43,165 nucleotides of DNA, from positions 1-43,165 of the IMG/VR virus record IMGVR_UViG_2541047954_000002; one strand, written 5' to 3'. Source of the stretch: a virus. Lineage: Duplodnaviria > Heunggongvirae > Uroviricota > Caudoviricetes. Position numbers and translations under genes: made by a program. Under the pieces are notes generated by a model. That model saw only the letters and a list, made by a program, of their open reading frames with translations, was not told where the DNA came from and did no database searches. Below are positions 10,757 through 40,855 of this stretch, piece after piece; the first letter of the stretch is position 1; every line of letters starts with the position of its first letter.

Positions 10757-11071
10757 TCAGAAGCTATTTGGATTGCTTGGCCATTGCGGCAATTTTGATT
10801 CTACCGGGGTGTGTTTGGGTTTGAGTCCGTTTAAGTAGTCAAGACGCTCAATGGCGCATTTATACATAGCAATCTGATCTGATGACATGTCGTCATATGA
10901 CATGCCTTTGAACTTCTTAATTATCGTTTCTGCCTCATGTATAAGATGCTTCTTCTTCATGAGTTCAGCTGTATGCTTAGAGCTTACAGGAGATAACTTT
11001 GCCCATATGAAGCAGATGATTACAACAGCGACCACTATACCTGGTATAAACATTTGCTGCTTTATCCTCAA
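10757..11071 (-). CDS. Small membrane protein (single N-terminal TM helix, 104 aa) co-transcribed downstream of cI
   Basis: Hydrophobic segment FIPGIVVAVVIICFIWAKL; start overlaps the cI stop; followed by a terminator; occupies the rexAB slot of lambda. Confidence 0.55.
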   Translation of the reverse strand: MRIKQQMFIPGIVVAVVIICFIWAKLSPVSSKHTAELMKKKHLIHEAETIIKKFKGMSYDDMSSDQIAMYKCAIERLDYLNGLKPKHTPVESKLPQWPSNPNSF

Positions 11072-11754
11072 AATTTTGGCAGATCGTCCTGGTCTACATA
11101 CCTAGTGTGTTTCACAATAGCTGAAACAAAATGCATTTTATCAACTTCTTCAACAGGAAGAGTGATTGGACGGTGATCGCTGTTTATACTACTAAACTGA
11201 TAGTCTCCGTCTCTTGTTTTGTTCATGATCTTTATCATGTTATGACCATCTTTGGTCCTTACAAAGACTTCATCACCTGGATGTACTGGCGTATTTGGTT
11301 CAATAACAACATATTCTCCTGACTGAATCCTTGGCCACATGCTGTCACCCTTAACCTTCAGACCGTAAGCATCTTTATCGCCACTGTAGATGCTTAACCA
11401 ACCGGATCTGAATTCAATCATATCCACTGAGCCATCAACTCCCAAAACGGCTTCACCAATTACCGGAACAAAACCCGCACGAACGTTACCCGCAAACTCA
11501 AGATGGTCTGCAGATCCAACTTTGCTATCTGCAAGCATGTCCATCCATCCGCGTGGGAGATTAAAAGATTTTTCAATTAGCTCCATCATATCGTCAGCAA
11601 TGCGTTTTTTTCCGCTTTTTCCTTCCGGATACAGCATTCTGGAAACGTATGATGGTTCCCTTTCTATTCGACGAGCCAACTCTGAGGCCTTTCCATTACA
11701 GAATCGGTCTCTTATCTCTATCAGCCTTAGTCGTCTTTGTTCGTATTTATCCAT
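11068..11754 (-). CDS. cI: Prophage CI repressor with C-terminal S24 (LexA-like) autopeptidase domain, 228 aa
   Basis: C-terminal KVKGDSMWPRIQSGEYVV motif; divergent from cro across an operator-containing intergenic region. Confidence 0.8.
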   Translation of the reverse strand: MDKYEQRRLRLIEIRDRFCNGKASELARRIEREPSYVSRMLYPEGKSGKKRIADDMMELIEKSFNLPRGWMDMLADSKVGSADHLEFAGNVRAGFVPVIGEAVLGVDGSVDMIEFRSGWLSIYSGDKDAYGLKVKGDSMWPRIQSGEYVVIEPNTPVHPGDEVFVRTKDGHNMIKIMNKTRDGDYQFSSINSDHRPITLPVEEVDKMHFVSAIVKHTRYVDQDDLPKF

Positions 11755-14990: not shown

Positions 14991-15070
14991 TGACCATCTA
15001 CATCACTGAGCTGATAGCAGGCCTGCTGGTAATCGCAGGCCTTTTTATTTGGGGGAGAGGGAAGTCATGA
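14990..15070 (+). CDS. Possible 26-aa hydrophobic peptide (MTIYITELIAGLLVIAGLFIWGRGKS)
   Basis: Start overlaps the helicase stop and stop overlaps the ninB start (ATGA at both ends); TM-like composition. Confidence 0.3.
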   Translation: MTIYITELIAGLLVIAGLFIWGRGKS

Positions 15071-15507
15071 AAAAACTAACCTTTGAAATTCGATCTCCAG
15101 CACATCAGCAAAACGCTATTCACGCAGTACAGCAAATTCTTCCAGACCCAACCAAACCAATCGTAGTAACCATTCAGGAACGCAACCGCAGCTTAGACCA
15201 AAACCGAAAGCTTTGGGCTTGCCTTGGTGACGTCTCTCGTCAGGTTGAATGGCATGGTCGCTGGCTGGATGCAGAAAGCTGGAAGTGTGTGTTTACCGCA
15301 GCATTAAAGCAGCAGGATGTTGTTCCTAACCTTGCCGGGAATGGCTTTGTGGTAATAGGCCAGTCAACCAGCAGGATGCGTGTAGGCGAATTTGCGGAGC
15401 TATTAGAGCTTATACAGGCATTCGGTACAGAGCGTGGCGTTAAGTGGTCAGACGAAGCGAGACTGGCTCTGGAGTGGAAAGCGCGATGGGGAGATCGGGC
15501 TGCATGA
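15067..15507 (+). CDS. ninB: NinB (Orf recombination mediator), 146 aa
   Basis: MKKLTFEIRSPAHQQNAIHAVQQILPDPTKPIVVTIQERNRSLDQNRKLWACLGDV... matches lambda NinB as remembered. Confidence 0.95.
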   Translation: MKKLTFEIRSPAHQQNAIHAVQQILPDPTKPIVVTIQERNRSLDQNRKLWACLGDVSRQVEWHGRWLDAESWKCVFTAALKQQDVVPNLAGNGFVVIGQSTSRMRVGEFAELLELIQAFGTERGVKWSDEARLALEWKARWGDRAA

Positions 15508-16031
15508 CTATCAAATCAAATACGCCAGCGTCAGATAGGTATCGGGTTATTGAGGATTATCTGTATTTAGACGGAGATACAGTCAGATACAAAAAGGACT
15601 CGCTAAAACACCCCAGCCACAGCCACCGGGCCGGAGATGAAATTAAAACATCGATAAATGGATCTGGGTATAGACAGGTGTGTTTTGCAGGCATTCAGAT
15701 GTTTGTTCACGTAGTTGTTTTTGCGCTGCACAACAAAAGAATGCCATTGAAAAATATTGACCATATTAACGGAAACAGGCTGGACAATTCCCCAAAAAAT
15801 CTTAGGGAGGCAAGCCGGATAGCAAACAGCCGAAATCAGAAAACTAAGTGCAATAGCCGTTCTGGAATAAAAAATGTTTTATGGAACAAGCAAAAAAATA
15901 AATGGGCCGTTCAAGTGCGCACAGATTTTGGCCGGTTGCATTTTGGGTTCTATGAAGATCTTGAGCTTGCTGGCTTGGTTGCCAGTGAGGCTATCAACAA
16001 ATATCACGGACAATATGCGAGGGTTGAATGA
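15504..16031 (+). CDS. HNH endonuclease with C-terminal AP2-like DNA-binding domain (free-standing homing-endonuclease-like gene)
   Basis: HNH_3-type motif DHINGNRLDNSPKNLR; C-terminal GIKNVLWNKQKNKWAVQVRTDFGRLHFGFYEDLELAG resembles AP2 domains; replaces ninC/ninD. Confidence 0.8.
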   Translation: MTIKSNTPASDRYRVIEDYLYLDGDTVRYKKDSLKHPSHSHRAGDEIKTSINGSGYRQVCFAGIQMFVHVVVFALHNKRMPLKNIDHINGNRLDNSPKNLREASRIANSRNQKTKCNSRSGIKNVLWNKQKNKWAVQVRTDFGRLHFGFYEDLELAGLVASEAINKYHGQYARVE

Positions 16032-16558
16032 TTCAGCATAAATCAGAAACACCAAAAGAAGTTAGAGACTGCTGGCAAACGCCGCTTTGGCTTTTTGATG
16101 CACTGGATATTGAGTTTGGATTCTGGCTGGATTCGGCAGCGAGCGACAAAAATGCTCTGTGCGCTCACTGGCTAACTGAGGCCGACGACGCGCTCAATTC
16201 TGAGTGGGTAAGCCACGGTGCAATCTGGAATAACCCACCGTACAGCAATATCAGGCCGTGGGTGGAAAAAGCCGCTGAGCAGTGCATACAACAGCGCCAG
16301 ACGGTAGTGATGCTTGTGCCAGAGGATATGTCTGTCGGATGGTTCAGCAAGGCTCTGGAGAGTGTTGACGAAGTTCGCATTATCACTGATGGACGGATTA
16401 ATTTTATCGAACCATCGACAGGGCTGGAGAAGAAGGGAAACAGCAAAGGCTCAATGCTGCTGATTTGGCGACCGTTCATCAGTCCTAGACGGATGTTTAC
16501 TACCGTATCCAAAGCGGCATTGATGGCGATCGGGCAGGGCGTCAGGAGGGCGGCATGA
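16028..16558 (+). CDS. Phage-type DNA N6-adenine methyltransferase (Dam-like orphan MTase)
   Basis: Catalytic NPPY motif ([10 protein letters not shown]); size and position typical of nin-region Dam-like MTases. Confidence 0.8.
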
Positions 16559-16737
16559 GGCGACAGCGACGAAGTTTCACCGACATCATCTGCGAAAACT
16601 GCAAATACCTTCCAACGAAACGCTCCAGAAATAAACGCAAGCCAATCCCAAAAGAATCTGACGTAAAAACCTTCAACTACACGGCTCACCTGTGGGATAT
16701 CCGGTGGCTAAGAAATCGTGCGAGGAAAACAAGGTGA
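16555..16737 (+). CDS. ninE: NinE, 60 aa
   Basis: [52 protein letters not shown] matches lambda NinE. Confidence 0.9.
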
Positions 16738-16904
16738 TTGACCAAAATCGAAGTTACGAACAAGAAAGCGTCGAGCGAGCTTTAACGTGTGCTAACTGCG
16801 GTCAGAAGCTGCATGTGCTGGAAGTTCATGTGTGTGAGCACGGCTGCGCAGAACTGAGGAGCGATCCGAATAGCTCAATGTACGAGGAAGAAGACGATGA
16901 ATGA
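16734..16904 (+). CDS. ninF: NinF (GTG start), 56 aa
   Basis: [40 protein letters not shown] matches lambda NinF; GTGA overlap with the ninE stop. Confidence 0.75.
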
Positions 16905-17619
16905 GTTAATAAATGGCAATGCCATCAAAATGACAAGCATTGAAATCGCTGAGTTGGTGGGTAAGCGTCATGACAATGTGAAACGTACCATCGAAACGCT
17001 GGCTAAAAATGGTGTTATCCGGCTTCCTCAAATTGAGGTTTCCGAAAGAATCAATAACTTAGGGTTCAATGTTCAGTACGAGCATTACGTCTTCGAAGGC
17101 GAACAAGGTAAGCGAGACAGTATTGTCGTTGTTGCCCAGTTGTCGCCGGAATTCACCGCTCGCCTTGTTGACCGCTGGCGAGAGCTTGAAGAAGCTGCGG
17201 TTAGTATCCCCAAAACGCTACCAGAAGCGTTGCGCCTTGCTGCTGATCTTGCTGAGCAGAAAATGCAACTGGAAAACCAGCTCGCAATTGCCGCACCTAA
17301 AGTTGAGTTTGCCGATCGCGTTGGCGAGGCCAGCGGAATTTTGATTGGAAACTTTGCAAAGGTTGTCGGTATTGGTCCAAACAAACTGTTTGCGTGGATG
17401 CGCGATCACAAAATCCTTATTGCTTCAGGTTCCCGGCGCAATGTGCCAATGCAGGAATATATGGATCGCGGCTATTTCACAGTGAAAGAAACAGCGGTCA
17501 ACACAAATCACGGAATACAGATATCGTTCACCACAAAAATCACCGGGCGTGGTCAACAGTGGCTGACCAGAAAGCTGCTCGATAACGGAATGCTGAAAGT
17601 AACAGGGGAGGCTGCTTAA
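16897..17619 (+). CDS. Antirepressor-like protein: N-terminal Rha (pRha) domain + C-terminal KilA-C/AntA-type domain, 240 aa
   Basis: N-terminus resembles Rha-family proteins (compare the 20865..21401 gene); C-terminal half resembles phage antirepressor KilAC domains. Confidence 0.65.
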   Translation: MNELINGNAIKMTSIEIAELVGKRHDNVKRTIETLAKNGVIRLPQIEVSERINNLGFNVQYEHYVFEGEQGKRDSIVVVAQLSPEFTARLVDRWRELEEAAVSIPKTLPEALRLAADLAEQKMQLENQLAIAAPKVEFADRVGEASGILIGNFAKVVGIGPNKLFAWMRDHKILIASGSRRNVPMQEYMDRGYFTVKETAVNTNHGIQISFTTKITGRGQQWLTRKLLDNGMLKVTGEAA

Positions 17620-17909
17620 TGGCTAACCTACGCAAAGAAGCGCGCGGCAGAGAATGCCAGGTACATATTTACGGCGTATGCAATGGCAATCCTGAAACTA
17701 CAGTTCTGGCACATTACCGGATGGCTGGAATTTGCGGAACGGGGATGAAGCCTGACGACCTGATCGGCGCATGGGCTTGTAGCGACTGCCACGCGGAGAT
17801 CGACCGACGCACCCATAATCTCGACAACAAAGACGCCAGACTTTACCACCTCGAAGGCGTGATCAGGACGCAGGCGATACTGCTGAAGGAGGGGAAGATT
17901 AAACCATGA
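17619..17909 (+). CDS. nin-region Cys/His-rich small protein (DUF1364-like), 96 aa
   Basis: C...C...H and CSDCH motifs; located immediately upstream of rusA, as commonly seen in lambdoid nin regions. Confidence 0.45.
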   Translation: MANLRKEARGRECQVHIYGVCNGNPETTVLAHYRMAGICGTGMKPDDLIGAWACSDCHAEIDRRTHNLDNKDARLYHLEGVIRTQAILLKEGKIKP

Positions 17910-18268
17910 ACGAATATCAGTTTGTGCTTCCATACCCGCCGTCGCTGAATACCTACTGGCGAAGACGGGGAAGCCAATACTACATCAGCGATAAAGGCCA
18001 GAAATACCGAAAAGACGTTCAGCAAATCATCCGCCAACTCAAGTTAGACATTTTCACCAAATCACGACTCCGCATAAAAGTCATCGCAGACGTTCCAGAC
18101 TCCCGCCGCCGCGACCTCGATAACATCCTGAAAGGTTTACTCGACTCCCTTATCCATGCCGGATTTGCGGAAGACGACGAGCAATTCGATGACATTCGCG
18201 TAATTCGTGGTGTGAAAGTACCAGGCGGACGGCTTGGAATAAAAATCACCGAACTGGAGAACGTATGA
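17906..18268 (+). CDS. rusA: RusA Holliday-junction resolvase, 120 aa
   Basis: RRRDLDNILKGLLDSL...AGF..DD catalytic aspartate motifs and overall similarity to RusA; occupies the ninG slot. Confidence 0.85.
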   Translation: MNEYQFVLPYPPSLNTYWRRRGSQYYISDKGQKYRKDVQQIIRQLKLDIFTKSRLRIKVIADVPDSRRRDLDNILKGLLDSLIHAGFAEDDEQFDDIRVIRGVKVPGGRLGIKITELENV

Positions 18269-18453
18269 ACGCCACAATTCAAACGATACCAGAGCTTCTT
18301 ATCAAGACACGAGGCAATCAGACCGAAGTGGCGAGGATGCTTTCCTGCGCAAGAGGAACGGTGCTCAAGTACAACCGAGACAGCAAAGGCGAGCGTCACG
18401 TAATAGTTAACGGCGTCCTGATGGTCACGCCAGGCAAAAAGGGAAGACGATGA
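18265..18453 (+). CDS. ninH: NinH-like protein, 62 aa
   Basis: KTIPELL...GNQTEVARMLSCARGTVLKY...IVNGVLMV parallels lambda NinH. Confidence 0.7.
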   Translation: MNATIQTIPELLIKTRGNQTEVARMLSCARGTVLKYNRDSKGERHVIVNGVLMVTPGKKGRR

Positions 18454-18968
18454 GCATAAGAGAGCTAAATCTCACCAAAGAACAGCACGAGTGGCTGAAT
18501 GGCTGGCTTGAACTGTGGGGCGCATGGGTTTATTCAGGTCGTCTGGAAAAGCGCATGGGCAGCGTAATAGCGAAGTTCATGGAGAGCGTAGAGCCGGGAA
18601 GAGTTATGACAAGGCCAATGTGTAATGATGATGATGGAATGTTGATTTCTCAGGTCGTCGATTCCGTCATGTACATTGACAAGAAAGCCTTTGGCATCCT
18701 CCTCAGCTACTACGCTCATGGTTCATCTAAGCGAGCAATTGCATCCTACTATCACGCGACTGCAAAGCCACGCAAGATGTGTGGACGTGGTGGCGAGGGA
18801 TGGAGAAAACCTTCACTGGCAACCTGTAGAAACGAAATTGACGACATCCTGAAAGCATCGTTATTTGTTTTGTACCAGCCAATGCAAAATGCTTTCAAAA
18901 TGCGTAAACGTGTTGAGAAAGTTAAGCATGTTGCTGTTAAAAGCCTTGACATGCAATTATCCATTTAG
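18450..18968 (+). CDS. Late-gene antiterminator Q-like protein, 172 aa
   Basis: Last gene of the nin operon, directly upstream of a pR'-like promoter, terminated leader and the lysis cassette; family identity not verified. Confidence 0.55.
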   Translation: MSIRELNLTKEQHEWLNGWLELWGAWVYSGRLEKRMGSVIAKFMESVEPGRVMTRPMCNDDDGMLISQVVDSVMYIDKKAFGILLSYYAHGSSKRAIASYYHATAKPRKMCGRGGEGWRKPSLATCRNEIDDILKASLFVLYQPMQNAFKMRKRVEKVKHVAVKSLDMQLSI

Positions 18969-19031: not shown

Positions 19032-19106
19032 GGGTCAGTCGTATAAAGGTCATTACGGAAGGCTGTTAACCTTCTTATCGTGGTTCGAGCCCACGCTGTC
19101 CCGCCA
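19032..19106 (+). tRNA. tRNA gene, anticodon GUU by hand folding (tRNA-Asn-like), encoded CCA
   Basis: Hand-folded cloverleaf: acceptor GGGTCAG/CTGTCCC (one mismatch), anticodon stem GAAGG/CCTTC with loop CTGTTAA, T-arm CGTGG-TTCGAGC-CCACG, 3' GCCA. Confidence 0.5.
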
Positions 19107-19111
19107 AACAT

Positions 19112-19187
19112 GCTGGTTTAGCTCCAATGGTAGAGCAGTCGCCTTGTAAGCGAATGGGTAGCGGTTCAAGTCCGTTAACCAGCACCA
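19112..19187 (+). tRNA. tRNA gene, anticodon UGU by hand folding (tRNA-Thr-like), encoded CCA
   Basis: Perfect 7-bp acceptor GCTGGTT/AACCAGC, D-arm GCTC..GAGC, anticodon loop CTTGTAA, T-arm AGCGG-TTCAAGT-CCGTT, 3' ACCA. Confidence 0.65.
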
Positions 19188-20864: not shown

Positions 20865-21401
20865 ATGAATGAATTAATTGTGAATCATGACTTTGACTTT
20901 CGCCAGTTAGTTACCGCAGCAGAAGGTCAACCGGTAACTGACACCTTCCAGATCGCAAAGGCATTTGGTAAGCGTCATGCGGACGTATTGAGGGCGCTGA
21001 AAAATTGTCATTGCTCTGAAGATTTCCGGAGAGCGCATTTTTGCGTTGCCGAAAAAATCAATGACTTAGGGATTTTTGACAAGAAACAGATTTACTACCG
21101 CATGGACTTTAGTGGCTTCGTTATGCTGGTCATGGGATTTAATGGCGCAAAAGCCGACGCTGTTAAAGAGGCCTATATAAATGCCTTTAACTGGATGTCT
21201 GCAGAACTCCGTAAGTACAGCGAAAGTTATGAAGCAGAACGCAACGCCATAATGCTGGAGTATATGAAAGAGAAGGATGTCGCCAGTATGTCTGGCCGCC
21301 TGCTCAATCGCTGGGGAAAAATTAAGAAGCCTCAGCTACTGGCGAGAATTGAACGCCTTGAACAGCACGGGCAAACCGTAATCCCCGGACTCACTAATTA
21401 A
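20865..21401 (+). CDS. Rha-family phage regulatory protein, ~179 aa
   Basis: N-terminus MNELIVNHDF...FGKRHADVLRAL parallels the Rha domain of the 16897..17619 gene; located between the lysis and packaging genes. Confidence 0.65.
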   Translation: MNELIVNHDFDFRQLVTAAEGQPVTDTFQIAKAFGKRHADVLRALKNCHCSEDFRRAHFCVAEKINDLGIFDKKQIYYRMDFSGFVMLVMGFNGAKADAVKEAYINAFNWMSAELRKYSESYEAERNAIMLEYMKEKDVASMSGRLLNRWGKIKKPQLLARIERLEQHGQTVIPGLTN

Positions 21402-36573: not shown

Positions 36574-37059
36574 TTATCTGATGTTACTGCTACTGTTGCA
36601 TGTTACCGCGTTTCCAAATCCTGAATTGCAGTTTGTATATGTGTCAACGCGTGTTGGGTAAGGTTGAGTTATAACAGGCTGGCGCGCTTTTTGCTCGATC
36701 GCTTGCATTGTGTTTACAGCCTGATAATTCAATAAAGCCTGCTGGAATGCTTGGCTTTGTGCTATTTGTTGGGCTTGTTCTTGGCTTTGTAATTGAACAT
36801 AAAGATTCTGAAGCTCAAGTCTTGCCTGTGCGTCACTTATCTTGCCTTCATCGACACCTTGCCCGAGCATCTTTGCAGCAAGGACATACAGCTTAGGTGT
36901 TGGTGCTGATGCCATGCGTGAGTCGTTCTTCACACTGGCATCAAGGCAATTAGCCATATCGCTAAGCTTTTGATAGCGTTGTTCGCAACTTGCTTGATAG
37001 TCACTTACTTTTGCGCACCCAGCCAGCAGAAGCGGGATAATTAACAGTGATTTTTTCAT
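36574..37059 (-). CDS. Lipoprotein (signal peptide MKKSLLIIPLLLAGC), 161 aa, opposite strand to the late operon
   Basis: Lipobox LLAGC; strong AAGGAGAG SD; in the sieA/immI slot between gp16 and the tailspike. Confidence 0.7.
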   Translation of the reverse strand: MKKSLLIIPLLLAGCAKVSDYQASCEQRYQKLSDMANCLDASVKNDSRMASAPTPKLYVLAAKMLGQGVDEGKISDAQARLELQNLYVQLQSQEQAQQIAQSQAFQQALLNYQAVNTMQAIEQKARQPVITQPYPTRVDTYTNCNSGFGNAVTCNSSSNIR

Positions 37060-37093
37060 ATAATTAACTCTCCTTAGTTTTGCGCAGGATACC

Positions 37094-37459
37094 ATGAAAA
37101 AAGTTAACATTGGAAACGTACCAAAGATGCTCGTTCCGCTCTTTGAGAGCGGTACAATTGTGTTTTGTAGAGACTTTCCAGAATGGCAACGCCTGCATCA
37201 AAAACTTGGCGTTGACGTGCATGACTCGGACGCCAACGGAGCGTCTCATACAATGAGTAGCGAGAATGGTGTTTTGCATGTGATAGGCGTGTTCAATGGC
37301 AAACTATCTACTATTGCCCATGAGTGCGCTCACATGGCATTCGATATCTGCTCAAGGGTAGGTGTTGATGTTGAACCAGGAAGAGCCAACGAGACTTACT
37401 GCTACTTAATGAGCAGGCTTGTTGAGTTCTGCGAGCGACATATCAAAAAGCCGGAGTGA
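37094..37459 (+). CDS. Hypothetical protein with HExxH motif (IAHECAHMAFD), 121 aa
   Basis: ORF with a possible zinc-metallopeptidase HExxH motif; weak SD; overlaps the probable promoter region of the lipoprotein gene. Confidence 0.3.
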   Translation: MKKVNIGNVPKMLVPLFESGTIVFCRDFPEWQRLHQKLGVDVHDSDANGASHTMSSENGVLHVIGVFNGKLSTIAHECAHMAFDICSRVGVDVEPGRANETYCYLMSRLVEFCERHIKKPE

Positions 37460-37472
37460 CCCGGCTTGATTA

Positions 37473-37652
37473 TTACTTTTTGCTGTCTGGAGTTCGCTTA
37501 TCCAATACCCAGCCATGACCTGGCTTTGTTGTTGGTGGAAGCCTTTCGTTGTCCTTGACGGTTGCAAAATTGTCTTTCTTACCGCCGCGTGGGCCAACTT
37601 CTTGGTATATTCCGCCGTTTTTTCCTGTGTTTTCACCTGGTTTTTTCGCCAT
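37473..37652 (-). CDS. Small hydrophilic protein, ~59 aa, YjzC-like
   Basis: MAKKPGENTGKNGGIYQEVGPRGG...LPPTTKPGHGWVL pattern resembles small YjzC-family proteins; hairpin plus T-run immediately downstream on the minus strand. Confidence 0.4.
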   Translation of the reverse strand: MAKKPGENTGKNGGIYQEVGPRGGKKDNFATVKDNERLPPTTKPGHGWVLDKRTPDSKK

Positions 37653-37734
37653 GATATACCTCAACATACACCCGTTATTGGGCGATTAAATATTGATCTC
37701 ATTTTATAAGTAGTCAATATGGCCCAGGTAAATG

Positions 37735-37767
37735 CAAAAATTAACCCACCTTCAGGTGGGTTTTTTG
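37735..37767. terminator. Bidirectional terminator-like hairpin overlapping the mnt stop codon
   Basis: ACCCACC-TTCA-GGTGGGT hairpin flanked by a T-run on the plus strand and by AATTTTTG on the minus strand. Confidence 0.5.
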
Positions 37768-38003
37768 TACAAATCCTTCAGCGTATCAAACACCATCTTC
37801 TTAACAAGTTCAGACTGCTCATCAGCGATGCGTTCCGCATCGTCTCGATAGCCTGAAATTTTGGATGGCTTTGATACGGCATCAGTCACTATCTGAACTA
37901 ATTCTGAATTAAGAGAGCGGCCATTGGATTTGGCTCGCTGTTTTAGTTTTTCCTTTAATTCGTAAGGTAGCCGCAGATTAAATTGCGGGTCATCTCTTCC
38001 CAT
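37752..38003 (-). CDS. mnt: Mnt repressor (ribbon-helix-helix), 83 aa
   Basis: DDPQFNLRLPYELKEKLKQRAKSNGRSLNSELVQIVTDAVSKPSKISGYRDDAERIADEQSELVKKMVFDTLKDLYKK closely matches remembered P22 Mnt. Confidence 0.9.
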   Translation of the reverse strand: MGRDDPQFNLRLPYELKEKLKQRAKSNGRSLNSELVQIVTDAVSKPSKISGYRDDAERIADEQSELVKKMVFDTLKDLYKKPT

Positions 38004-38149: not shown

Positions 38150-40855
38150 ATGACAGACATTACAGCCAATGTTGTAGTGAGTATGCCTTCGCAACTCTTC
38201 ACTATGGCGCGTTCTTTTAAAGCCGTAGCCAATGGCAAAATTTATATCGGTAAAATTGACACTGACCCGGTAAATCCTGAAAACCAGATTCAGGTTTATG
38301 TAGAGAACGAAGACGGTTCTCACATTCCTGTTTCGCAACCAATAATCATTAACGCTGCTGGATATCCGGTATATAACGGACAGATTGCCAAATTCGTAAC
38401 CGTGCAAGGCCATTCTATGGCTGTTTACGATGCTTATGGCACTCAGCAGTTTTATTTTCCAAATGTATTAAAATACGATCCAGATCAGTTTGGCCCAGAC
38501 TTCAAAGAGCAGTTATCTCAATCAGGAGCATACATTAATGATGATTCAAAAGGTGATGCATTAATTGGGGTAAGGCAGCCATTTACCGGGGCTGTAACTA
38601 TAACTCAGCATGAAAACAATGCTCTTTTCTTAAATGTAAAACAATTTGGAGCAATTGGGGATGGGAAATATCATCCATTATCTGAGTGGTTTTCTTCAAT
38701 TTCTGAAGCAAAATCCTTATATCCTTTTGTTGACTCATTATCTCAGTCAATAGACTGGGCCGCGTGGCAAGCTGCCATTAACACAGGAAAGGTTATTTAT
38801 GGTACTGATAATGCGTATGTAATAACGGATACGTTAACACCTGTTTCTGGTGGTGGGATAATTGGTCTTGGTGTGGGCAAATGGGTCTCCGGATATACTG
38901 CAACATTTGCTCCTGATATTACCACAGGGACCACATTCCTGATGTACGGTGTAGGAAATAAAAAATATACTGTAGATTGTGTTTCTAATATGGATGTTAG
39001 TGGTGGTGTGGTTTCTAATCCATCTTCCGAAGACCCGTATACAACAACGGCACCTGCGTCATCATATGATTTATTGGATTTTACTAACGGTGATGCTAAT
39101 GGGGCTACAAGAGCCACGCTTAAACCATTCTCTGCCGCAATATTGATGCCAGAGACAGGATGTGTTCGCCTTGAGAACTTTCGTATTGTTCCATATTTCA
39201 ATGGGCTGGATGGTTATAAAGACATTGCAAATACCGGTCTTGGCGATGAGTGGGATGTAGGTATTTGGTCACGTGCGTCTTTTGGCAATGAATACCGCAA
39301 TTTGCAGGTGGTTGGATACTGGCGCAAGACGGCACTTTTAAAAACGAACATTCCTGTATCTGGCACGCTGGCCGCTCAGGGCGAGGATGAAAACTATTAT
39401 CACTGTAGATTCCAGGGATTCAAGGGTGTTTCGATCCGCGCCCATGATGTATTCCGAATTACAGCGGTAACGTCCAGCACTATCGAAATCCCATGGTCAT
39501 CAAGCCACACCTTCGAAACGTCCGGGGTTTTAAGATCGGGAGGCAGGAATTTCACTTATTCAGGATTATCCGTATCCGGTGATAAGTTAGTATTTACTGG
39601 AGTGTCTAACGCTTCTGAGGCAACAGTAGGTTCTACTATACGGCGAAATGACATAGATAACTTTGGTATGGCGGGAACGCAATTTTTCGATTGCTACATT
39701 ACCAGCCTGTATCACCACACACATCTGCTTGCCACATCGCAATACCTGTCTCAGCCATTCAGCCGGCCATCAGAGTGTATGGAGGTTTCAGGGGAACCAG
39801 TTCGCGGTGTACAGGTACATGCGGGAACCATTCAGGGATGGGATGATGTTCTTATTCATCTGCATGACTGTGGAAATATGAACTTTTACAGTACATATTT
39901 CGAAAGCCAGCAAGCATATGTAACTATAAATGGTGGTAATGCTATTGGTTATGGAGCACGTATGATAGCTTCCCGGCAATCAACAAGCTCATTACCATAT
40001 GCAGCAGGGAATACTCGAGTGCTTAGAATGGTCGGGTGCTCTGAAGGCAATGGCGTTGACTGGGGTCCTGTATTTAACAACTATACAGGAGGAAGATATA
40101 ATTCTGGAGACGGTGTATTTAACCCCCGCGATGCATTTATAGACCATAAATCTCTTCCTGAGCAGTCAGGAGGTGAGTCAAGACTCGTATCACAAAAAGG
40201 AAATGCCAGAGTAGTATGTGGTGTTGGTAAAACTGTACTGCTTGGACCAACGTCAGGAGATTGTAATTTACAGAGTAATACTGGAAGTTTAAATATTAGA
40301 AGTGGGATAAGAGTAAGAATCGGTCACGCTGATGGAACAGACTGGTGGTTGGCAGATGCTAATAAAATAGCTCCTGTTGATGATAATGTTAAAGCTATTG
40401 GACAGCCATCAAACAGATGCTCTGTTATCTATGCAGGAACCGGGTCAATCAATACATCAGATGAAACTCTTAAAACAAGATATGATATTCTTAATGCAGA
40501 GCGTGATGCCGCTATTGAAATAAAGTCAGTCATCTATAAATTTAAATTTAATGACTCAATTAATCACAAAGGAATTGAGTCGTCCAGGTATCATTTTGGC
40601 GTTGGCGCTCAAACCGTAGGGGATATTCTTAGAAAGCATGGTTTAAATCCTGAGCAATATGCTTTTTGGTGTTACGATGAATGGCCTGACGTATGGGATG
40701 AAGAGGTGATAACTGAAGAGAGCACAGATCCTGATACAGGTGAGAAAATTTATTCTCAATATAAAACAGGAGATATGATTCTTGTAAAAAAAGCAGGAGG
40801 ACGCTACGGAATTCGTTATGACGAATTGGCTATGTTTATATTAATGGCAATGTAG
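38150..40855 (+). CDS. Tailspike protein: P22 gp9-like N-terminal head-binding domain, divergent receptor-binding body, C-terminal intramolecular-chaperone-like domain, 901 aa
   Basis: N-terminal ~115 aa [43 protein letters not shown]...[10 protein letters not shown] parallels P22 tailspike; C-terminal region has an SDETLK motif resembling autoproteolytic chaperone domains. Confidence 0.9.

Follow-up and report, generated by a model that had tools for sequence, protein, structure and literature searches.

Why should a nuclease gene stand directly before a DNA methylase gene in the nin region of a lambdoid prophage? This situation is found in the IMG/VR record IMGVR_UViG_2541047954_000002, of which we have analyzed the whole stretch of 43,165 nucleotides (nt), referred to below as the window. 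The window is a P22-like Escherichia coli prophage of the CUS-3/HK620 type: its integrase is of the lambda type, its repressor belongs to S24, its morphogenetic genes are of the P22 type and its tailspike carries a P22 head-binding domain. Between ninB and ninE there are an HNH-AP2 endonuclease gene (the HNH gene) and an N6-adenine methyltransferase gene (the methylase), and ATGA overlaps couple the genes. An earlier note on this DNA had proposed this arrangement, and the Pfam matches and the overlaps at 15504-15507 (ninB TGA/HNH ATG) and 16028-16031 bear it out for every gene. Our analysis indicates that the HNH gene is probably a freestanding-type homing endonuclease gene aimed at the 5' end of the methylase gene, and not one half of a restriction-modification (R-M) pair. 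The features involved are:

15070-15507, + strand: ninB/orf recombination mediator, the left flank of the insertion (Pfam NinB, E 2e-54; 97% amino acid identity to HK140 NinB)
15504-16031, + strand: HNH-AP2 endonuclease open reading frame (ORF), 175 residues (Pfam HNH_3, E 4.6e-11; PHROG 99, HNH endonuclease)
15504-15530, + strand: captured start of 9 codons (MTIKSNTPA; ATGACTATCAAATCAAATACGCCAGCG), equal in nucleotides to the HK140 methylase start; HK97 differs at one base
15531-16066, + strand: cassette of 536 bp, from alignments to HK97 and HK140, which have 9 nt (CACGACAAG) instead
15702-15833: HNH_3 domain, residues 67-110
15864-16004: AP2-like domain, about residues 121-167, from homologues and a structure model
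16015-16066, + strand: donated methylase 5' end, with a ribosome-binding site (GAGGG), 13 replacement codons and an ATG that overlaps the stop codon of the HNH ORF
16028-16558, + strand: Dam-family N6-adenine methyltransferase, 176 residues, intact (PF05869, E 8e-66)

An insertion inside the methylase coding sequence

The phages HK140 and HK97 are collinear with the window and 95-98% identical to it on either side of 15531-16066. Alignment of the nin regions, by which the earlier note had proposed to find the limits of a cassette, delimits it as exactly this block, which is missing from both phages (coverage 84% for HK140 and 82% for HK97). The insertion point falls in codons 10-12 (CAC GAC AAG) of the HK97-type methylase ORF, near its 5' end, and the cassette has a foreign composition (41.4% GC versus 50-53% in the flanks). 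On the left side, the captured methylase codons 1-9 are now the N-terminus of the HNH ORF and are read from the methylase's own ATG; at codons 10-12 the window has SDR and the HK97 type HDK, with 6 of the 9 nt equal. Because the HNH ORF uses the captured methylase start, it inherits the ATGA translational coupling to ninB. On the right side, GAGGGTTGAATGA is followed by 13 codons and the methylase frame is rejoined at GAC TGC TGG CAA ACG CCG (D-C-W-Q-T-P), so that the methylase stays intact at 176 residues and is restarted by a second ATGA.

We designate the HK97-type methylase start as A and the substitute start brought by the cassette as B. The B-type start was found also in a few HNH-less loci, of which E. 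coli E2, FDAARGOS_944 and contig L063 keep remnants of the HNH 3' end, while E308, TW10590, L052 and L064 have none. Methylase codon 3 of the window (16034-16036) is CAG (Gln, MIQHK), and AAG (Lys, MIKHK) in all other B-type loci inspected. When the two alleles of the junction between the ninB end and the methylase start were aligned, 39 of 69 positions matched, a score equaled by 51 of 2000 shuffles; a direct repeat flanking the HNH body is suggestive only. We also considered the A-type start as the product of an HNH deletion. This was discarded, as codons 10-12 (CAC GAC AAG) are absent from HNH-plus loci and the motif NTP..D.KD is native to the N-termini of Dam-family proteins (contig L013).

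Presence, absence and decay of the cassette

Among 50,697 phage records there was no nucleotide match to the cassette, and none had a match to the HNH protein above 60% identity. The complete cassette was present in 34 of 5426 complete E. coli genomes, and in the E. coli loci inspected it was always immediately 5' of the methylase. The methylase body itself was found in 1566 of these genomes, at 2193 places, which gives a cassette occupancy of about 2%. In a pooled set, in which some contigs are included twice and five rows were reclassified after a false anchor match, all 67 A-type loci were without the HNH gene and all 32 classifiable HNH-plus rows had the B-type start. A second methylase-like anchor that appeared upstream of the HNH gene in loci of the M160133 type turned out to be fortuitous, the match being within a divergent ninB/ybcN-like gene.

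At least four different ninB backgrounds carry HNH-plus loci, and in three cases there are HNH-less A-type counterparts that are 97-100% identical over the left 250 nt. Over the right 460 nt, HNH-less counterparts are 98-99.8% identical. No fixed single nucleotide polymorphism (SNP) in the methylase body separated HNH-plus from HNH-less alleles, with a weak frequency shift at 16162 only. There is then a presence/absence polymorphism at one precise site among near-identical genomes, and the near-identical flanks together with the absence of fixed SNPs indicate that it goes back to recombination tight to the cassette and not to descent. The 9 nt (CACGACAAG) of the empty A-type allele cannot be regained through a simple deletion. 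Since no haplotype in the methylase body is linked to the HNH gene, co-conversion tracts, if there were any, would have been very short or erased by later recombination. The idea of a mobile cassette, put forward in the earlier note for the endonuclease and methylase together, is supported for the HNH gene, a 536-bp indel on several backgrounds. It is not supported for the pair, as the methylase is a resident gene mostly without an HNH neighbor.

We inspected 21 HNH copies and found 16 intact and 5 broken: two are frameshifted, one has a premature stop and two are without their 5' end (one of them through IS100 truncation). In E. coli E2 (contig L004, 1520-1580) a deletion between two copies of CTATCAA, a 7-bp microhomology, left a mini-ORF of 14 codons (MTINKYHGQYVRVE) that is a clear scar of HNH loss. 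A deletion scar is also present in FDAARGOS_944 (contig L005, 1500-1535), where the ninB frame continues over 26 nt left from the HNH 3' end and terminates at the former HNH stop. Invasion, degeneration and loss, the cycle expected of a homing endonuclease gene, are thus all represented.

The same data could be read in another way, with the HNH gene as an ordinary accessory nuclease of the nin region, active in recombination or repair like YbcO, RusA and NinG and passively shuffled by lambdoid mosaicism, with no part in its own spread. Mosaicism is strong in nin regions, which contain many nucleases (PMC8022706, PMC4118853), the breakpoints of recombination often coincide with gene boundaries, and the cassette is rare and not sweeping through the population. 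However, the breakpoints of the cassette are inside the methylase ORF and not at a gene boundary, and the decay and the scars are more in keeping with a selfish element than with a useful gene. With the further points raised below (the family of the protein and a common insertion site in diverged lineages), we consider this explanation improbable.

The family of the HNH protein

The five residues that are invariant across 54 homologues of the HNH protein (H69, D86, H87, N99 and N108, comprising the catalytic His and the metal-binding Asp/Asn) are all present in the window. Its profile match and these catalytic and metal-binding residues assign it to the HNH_3 subfamily of His-Me finger nucleases. 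The Pfam AP2 model gave no match at E<=10, either with the whole protein or with the C-terminal 66 residues, although it was found in 20 of the 54 homologues; these and the structure model show that the protein has a C-terminal AP2-like domain. The domain places it among the HNH-AP2 enzymes, which have been described as a family of homing endonucleases (Magnani et al. 2004, cited from PMC10448857). The best structural match of the model was I-HmuI. PADLOC gave a weak 'homing endonuclease' match, and a sequence search of the PDB gave no meaningful match for the HNH protein or the methylase. This fold and family, being those of homing endonucleases, speak against an ordinary nin nuclease.

The phage relatives at E<=1e-8 amounted to 1523 records with identities of up to 38%, often annotated as homing endonucleases and in some large phages (H8, SHSML-45) present in several copies per genome. 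The distant relatives were wedged between lysis, replication or structural genes, among them capsid, tail-fibre and holin genes. Only one distant relative was found in the GTDB representative genomes, which gives no information on the host range. Two environmental phage contigs (L015, 3001-4732, and L016, 1716-3447) have two different HNH_3 genes within 1.3 kb, adjoining tail-fibre genes, and are an example of clustered homing endonuclease genes. In the nin region of the Stx1 phage AU6Stx1 (contig L023, 2402-3007), the gene of another HNH endonuclease (38% identity) has been inserted immediately before ninG, which indicates that nin regions host more than one lineage of such elements.

Selection on the HNH gene was assessed with the ratio of non-synonymous to synonymous substitution rates (dN/dS). 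Between the window and a 75%-identical homologue in the Logan contig L012 the dN/dS was 0.10 (dS about 1.6), indicating long-term purifying selection. Within the E. coli clade the value was 0.8, from 3 synonymous and 9 non-synonymous changes, and selection there is apparently relaxed.

The resident methylase and the R-M explanation

The standard view of this methylase family is that of an orphan and possibly restriction-evading enzyme. The window protein scores 264 bits with TIGR01712 (the NCBIfam equivalog phage N-6-adenine-methyltransferase), far above the curated cut-off of 97. It has the NPPY motif at residues 68-71, within IWNNPPYS, has no cognate restriction gene, and is classed by PADLOC as an 'orphan methyltransferase'. 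From residue 5 on it is 96% identical to HK97 gp62. A GATC specificity would be expected from the family. M.EcoVT2Dam, a possible homologue, targets GATC (PMC6602927). HK97, HK140 and about 98% of the carrier E. coli genomes have the methylase without the HNH gene. It is to be read as a resident orphan gene of HK97/HK140-type nin regions, independent of the HNH gene.

A nuclease next to a methylase could form a two-gene module, a minimal R-M-like or competitor-exclusion system in which unmethylated DNA is attacked and the phage's own DNA is protected. Translation of the two genes is coupled, HNH catalytic domains are in use in some type II restriction enzymes, and the adjacency is repeated in three lineages, with HNH proteins 100%, 75% and 50% identical to that of the window. 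The second of these is contig L012, where the left neighbor is DUF1367 instead of ninB and the HNH stop overlaps the ATG of a Dam-family methylase only 46% identical. At the nucleotide level the identity there was 70-82% across the HNH gene and roughly 100 nt into the methylase, and about 50% beyond. The third is contig L013, with thioredoxin-like and ribonucleotide reductase-like (nrd) genes as left neighbors, in which the HNH gene abuts (TAATG) a Dam-family methylase 44% identical.

Actually, the details of these lineages do not favor a module. The HNH proteins of L012 and the window are 75% identical and the methylases 46%, so that the pair has not co-diverged there. No Dam-family gene was found in the flanking DNA available for 73 metagenomic relatives of the HNH protein (35-50% identity), and the wider family in phages is likewise not beside methylases. 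Association with a methylase thus characterizes a narrow clade, and not the HNH family as a whole, as is expected if the target of that clade sits in the conserved 5' part of Dam-family genes. The insertion site is common to these three diverged lineages with their different left neighbors, which is not what passive shuffling of an accessory nuclease would predict.

Other evidence against an R-M-like module comes from the E. coli loci. Besides the large majority of carrier genomes in which the methylase is alone, there are broken HNH copies that adjoin intact methylases, and E. coli E89 has the reverse, an intact HNH gene beside a truncated methylase pseudogene. The two genes are not co-inherited, which agrees with the earlier suspicion that this is no classical R-M system. 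The architecture of the HNH protein is that of homing endonucleases, and PADLOC saw an orphan methylase and a weak homing endonuclease. In lambdoid nin regions ATGA coupling is the general rule (PMC8022706), and so it is no sign of a functional pairing of HNH and methylase. Altogether a restriction-like function of the pair seems to us quite unlikely.

Probable homing into the methylase gene

What remains is the homing reading, which we hold to be probable. It follows from features that are used to recognize such elements (PMC2988022): a precise site, no promoter of its own, a sporadic presence on several backgrounds, decay, scars and a target gene next door. With respect to the promoter, no sigma-70-like candidate was found in 15000-18000, where 3.3 were expected by chance, and the homing endonuclease cassettes of T4 are also promoter-less (PMC2988022).

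From the sequence we infer a nuclease cleavage, a target site, a direction of transfer and a super-Mendelian inheritance along the following lines. A promoter-less HNH-AP2 cassette of 536 bp would have entered the methylase gene at codons 10-12 by recombination. In a cell shared by an HNH-plus and an HNH-less phage or prophage, the nuclease would nick or cut the uninterrupted HK97-type allele, perhaps at or near ...ACGCCAGC(A/G)CACGACAAG/GACTGCTGGCAAACGCCG..., and repair from the HNH-plus copy would carry the cassette into the cut allele.

Several points weigh against this reading. Cleavage, nicking and homing are putative for this HNH protein and for its close relatives alike, and the proposed target site is a guess. 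Ordinary homologous recombination among mosaic lambdoid phages, without any nuclease, could give the same presence/absence pattern. All HNH-plus loci share the A-type 9 codons at the left and the B-type start at the right, so a single founding event followed by passive spread could account for them. The existence of scar-free HNH-less B-type alleles means that the 'donated' 5' end occurs as a free-living allele too, which makes the order of events uncertain. In the freestanding endonucleases that have been characterized, the cut is usually hundreds of bp away from the endonuclease gene (PMC2988022). Finally, the dN/dS of 0.8 within the clade and the 24% of broken copies suggest that selection has ceased to act on many of the copies.

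The pattern in the three lineages allows a more specific proposal, which we make tentatively and with rather more doubt than confidence. A small HNH-AP2 clade may have specialized on the conserved 5' end of the orphan Dam-family methylase genes of phages. It would insert inside the gene without intron or intein, capture the resident start, and carry a substitute ribosome-binding site, ATG and N-terminus for the gene that it interrupts, a self-repairing intronless homing.

Comparison with known elements

The window cassette resembles the freestanding HNH homing endonucleases of phages, such as mobA-E of T4 and I-HmuI of SPO1. These are also small promoter-less nuclease genes located by conserved genes, sporadic among near-identical genomes, linked to a neighboring target gene and with decayed copies (PMC2988022). 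However, the window HNH gene is inside the 5' coding region of its neighbor and not intergenic, it borrows its start and supplies a substitute 5' end, and its activity and cleavage site are putative. With the HNH-AP2 family (the 'IPA-HNH' genes of the ICP1 phages, PMC10448857) it shares an N-terminal HNH_3 domain and a C-terminal AP2-like domain, although the AP2 part of the window is too diverged for the Pfam model and its clade is specifically attached to Dam-family methylase genes.

There are partial precedents for the intragenic capture of a start, so the device is neat but not unprecedented. The ShiLan-domain insertion (PMC11855218) is an HNH homing element inside the orphan methylase gene of a phage, without intron or intein and with an apparently functional methylase. 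There the HNH gene occupies the middle of the methylase out of frame, and translation passes through it to give an extra loop, whereas the window HNH is in frame with nine methylase codons and has a stop, and the methylase restarts from the donated ATG. The methylase families, the HNH families and the hosts of the two cases are unrelated. In the P22-like phage epsilon34, gene 31 (PMC2629481) is an HNH homing endonuclease fused in frame to the N-terminal codons of the resident eaE; it is of another HNH lineage, lies in the early left operon, and no rebuilt copy of the interrupted gene has been described downstream of it.

The methylase corresponds to HK97 gp62 and HK140 gp56 (PF05869, TIGR01712), which stand in the same place between ninB and ninE. 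Only its first 13 residues differ from the HK97 type (MTIKSNTPAHDK), because of the cassette. The product of the Rha/KilAC gene corresponds to Roi of HK022, HK97, HK140, HK620 and CUS-3, in its place between ninF and ybcO/hkbD and in its two-domain make-up. The methylase and Roi are then already present in published phages, and the HNH cassette is an undescribed element of a known selfish kind.

The nin region backbone

The early-right operon of the window lies on the + strand (15.0-19.0 kb), tightly packed from ninB to Q. Besides the genes already given, we located:

11068-11754: prophage repressor gene, outside the operon
16555-16737, + strand: ninE (Pfam NinE, E 3e-42; 98% identical to HK140)
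16734-16904, + strand: ninF (Pfam NinF; 93% identical to HK140 NinF; GTG start set by homology to HK140 gp58)
16897-17619, + strand: roi, with an N-terminal Rha and a C-terminal KilAC/ANT domain (Pfam Phage_pRha, E 6e-9; ANT/KilAC, E 8e-33)
17619-17909, + strand: ybcO/DUF1364 putative nuclease, between roi and rusA (HK97 gp66, hkbD; Pfam YbcO, E 6e-43; PHROG 131)
17906-18268, + strand: rusA
18265-18453, + strand: ninH
18450-18968, + strand: Q

Over 15000-18300 the nucleotide identity to phages HK140, E212, N7, HK97 and mEp506 was 95-98%; parts of the region also match HK022, HK620, CUS-3 and many Stx phages, and related DNA was present in 2351 of the 5426 E. coli genomes. HK140 and HK97 have the gene order ninB-methylase-ninE-ninF-roi-gp66-rusA-ninH-Q, without the HNH gene. 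Protein identity to HK140 was 92-99% across the backbone except for Q, which matches the Q of CUS-3 at 98%. The backbone thus reads as the known HK97/HK140 arrangement, in which the HNH gene alone is unusual. A third ATGA overlap is found at 16555-16558, while ninE and ninF overlap by GTGA, and roi and ybcO by TAATG.

Two other elements border the operon. A strong terminator-like hairpin (15019-15042, + strand) with an 8-bp stem, six GC pairs and a T-run lies between a DnaB-like helicase gene and ninB, in the position of lambda tR2. Between Q and the holin gene are a tRNA-Asn (GTT; 19032-19106, + strand) and a tRNA-Thr (TGT; 19112-19187, + strand).

Roi and the missing antirepressor

The gene with Rha and KilAC domains was confirmed between ninF and rusA, with ybcO also in between. 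Its product is 99.2% identical to HK140 gp59, with values of 98.3% for the Roi of CUS-3 and 88% for that of HK022, and roi is at the same nin position in HK022, HK97, HK140, HK620 and CUS-3. Orthology and position between ninF and hkbD/ybcO indicate that it is Roi, a DNA-binding regulator of the HK022 type. In residues 22-64 (16960-17088), the Rha/helix-turn-helix part, 27 of 43 positions differ from HK022/HK97 Roi, while the C-terminal 175 residues are nearly identical. This is a module swap, and the DNA-binding specificity may differ from that of the studied HK022 Roi. A second gene of the Rha family (20868-21401, + strand; Phage_pRha and ORF11CD3) is found just after the lysis genes, so that the prophage has two Rha-domain regulators.

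The earlier note had also regarded the immI ant as missing, and in this it was right. An 83-residue Mnt-like ribbon-helix-helix repressor gene (37752-38003, - strand) is found directly upstream of the tailspike gene (38150), without arc or ant, and looks like a degraded 'ant moron'. In the rest of the moron (36574-37667) there are a lipoprotein-like ORF (36574-37110, - strand) with the signal MKKSLLIIPLLLAGC and two ORFs without a Pfam match. The tailspike (38150-40855, + strand) has, besides its P22-type head-binding domain, C-terminal pieces of the endosialidase type (End_tail_spike and the Peptidase_S74 chaperone), an architecture that resembles the K1-specific tailspike of CUS-3.

A further proposal was that the Rha/KilAC protein acts as an antirepressor, standing in for the missing Ant and inducing this or other prophages. 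Its C-terminal half does match the ANT/KilAC family, the PHROGs label is 'anti-repressor Ant', and arc and ant are absent beside mnt. However, the protein is Roi by its close identity to the HK140 and HK022 proteins, and HK022 and HK97, neither of which is P22-like, have it at this position too. In CUS-3, roi is accompanied by a putative antirepressor gene that belongs to the ant moron (PMC2629481), and Stx phages have Ant and Roi side by side (PMC3430580). The coexistence of Roi with antirepressor genes in these phages indicates that its presence is not tied to the loss of immI. The location in the nin region, and not in an ant moron under mnt/arc control, is also different from that of a P22-type Ant. 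The HK022 protein is described as a DNA-binding protein tied to IHF-dependent lytic growth (Clerget and Boccard 1996, as cited in PMC3430580). A replacement of Ant by Roi is accordingly a proposal that we found hard to sustain and hold very unlikely.

What the insertion means

Most of what we have found in this nin region is textbook lambdoid mosaicism. The HNH insertion itself is a clean natural case of a homing endonuclease gene, if our reading is right, within a coding sequence and without splicing, by capture of a start codon and donation of a new 5' end. For annotation it is a warning that adjacent and translationally coupled nuclease and methylase genes need not be an R-M pair. It also offers a testable system, with HK97 and HK140 as empty-site recipients and dozens of E. 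coli prophages as donors, in the temperate lambdoid phages, where homing has been studied far less than in the T4-like phages. If self-repairing intronless homing does take place here, it would make an intragenic insertion phenotypically neutral.

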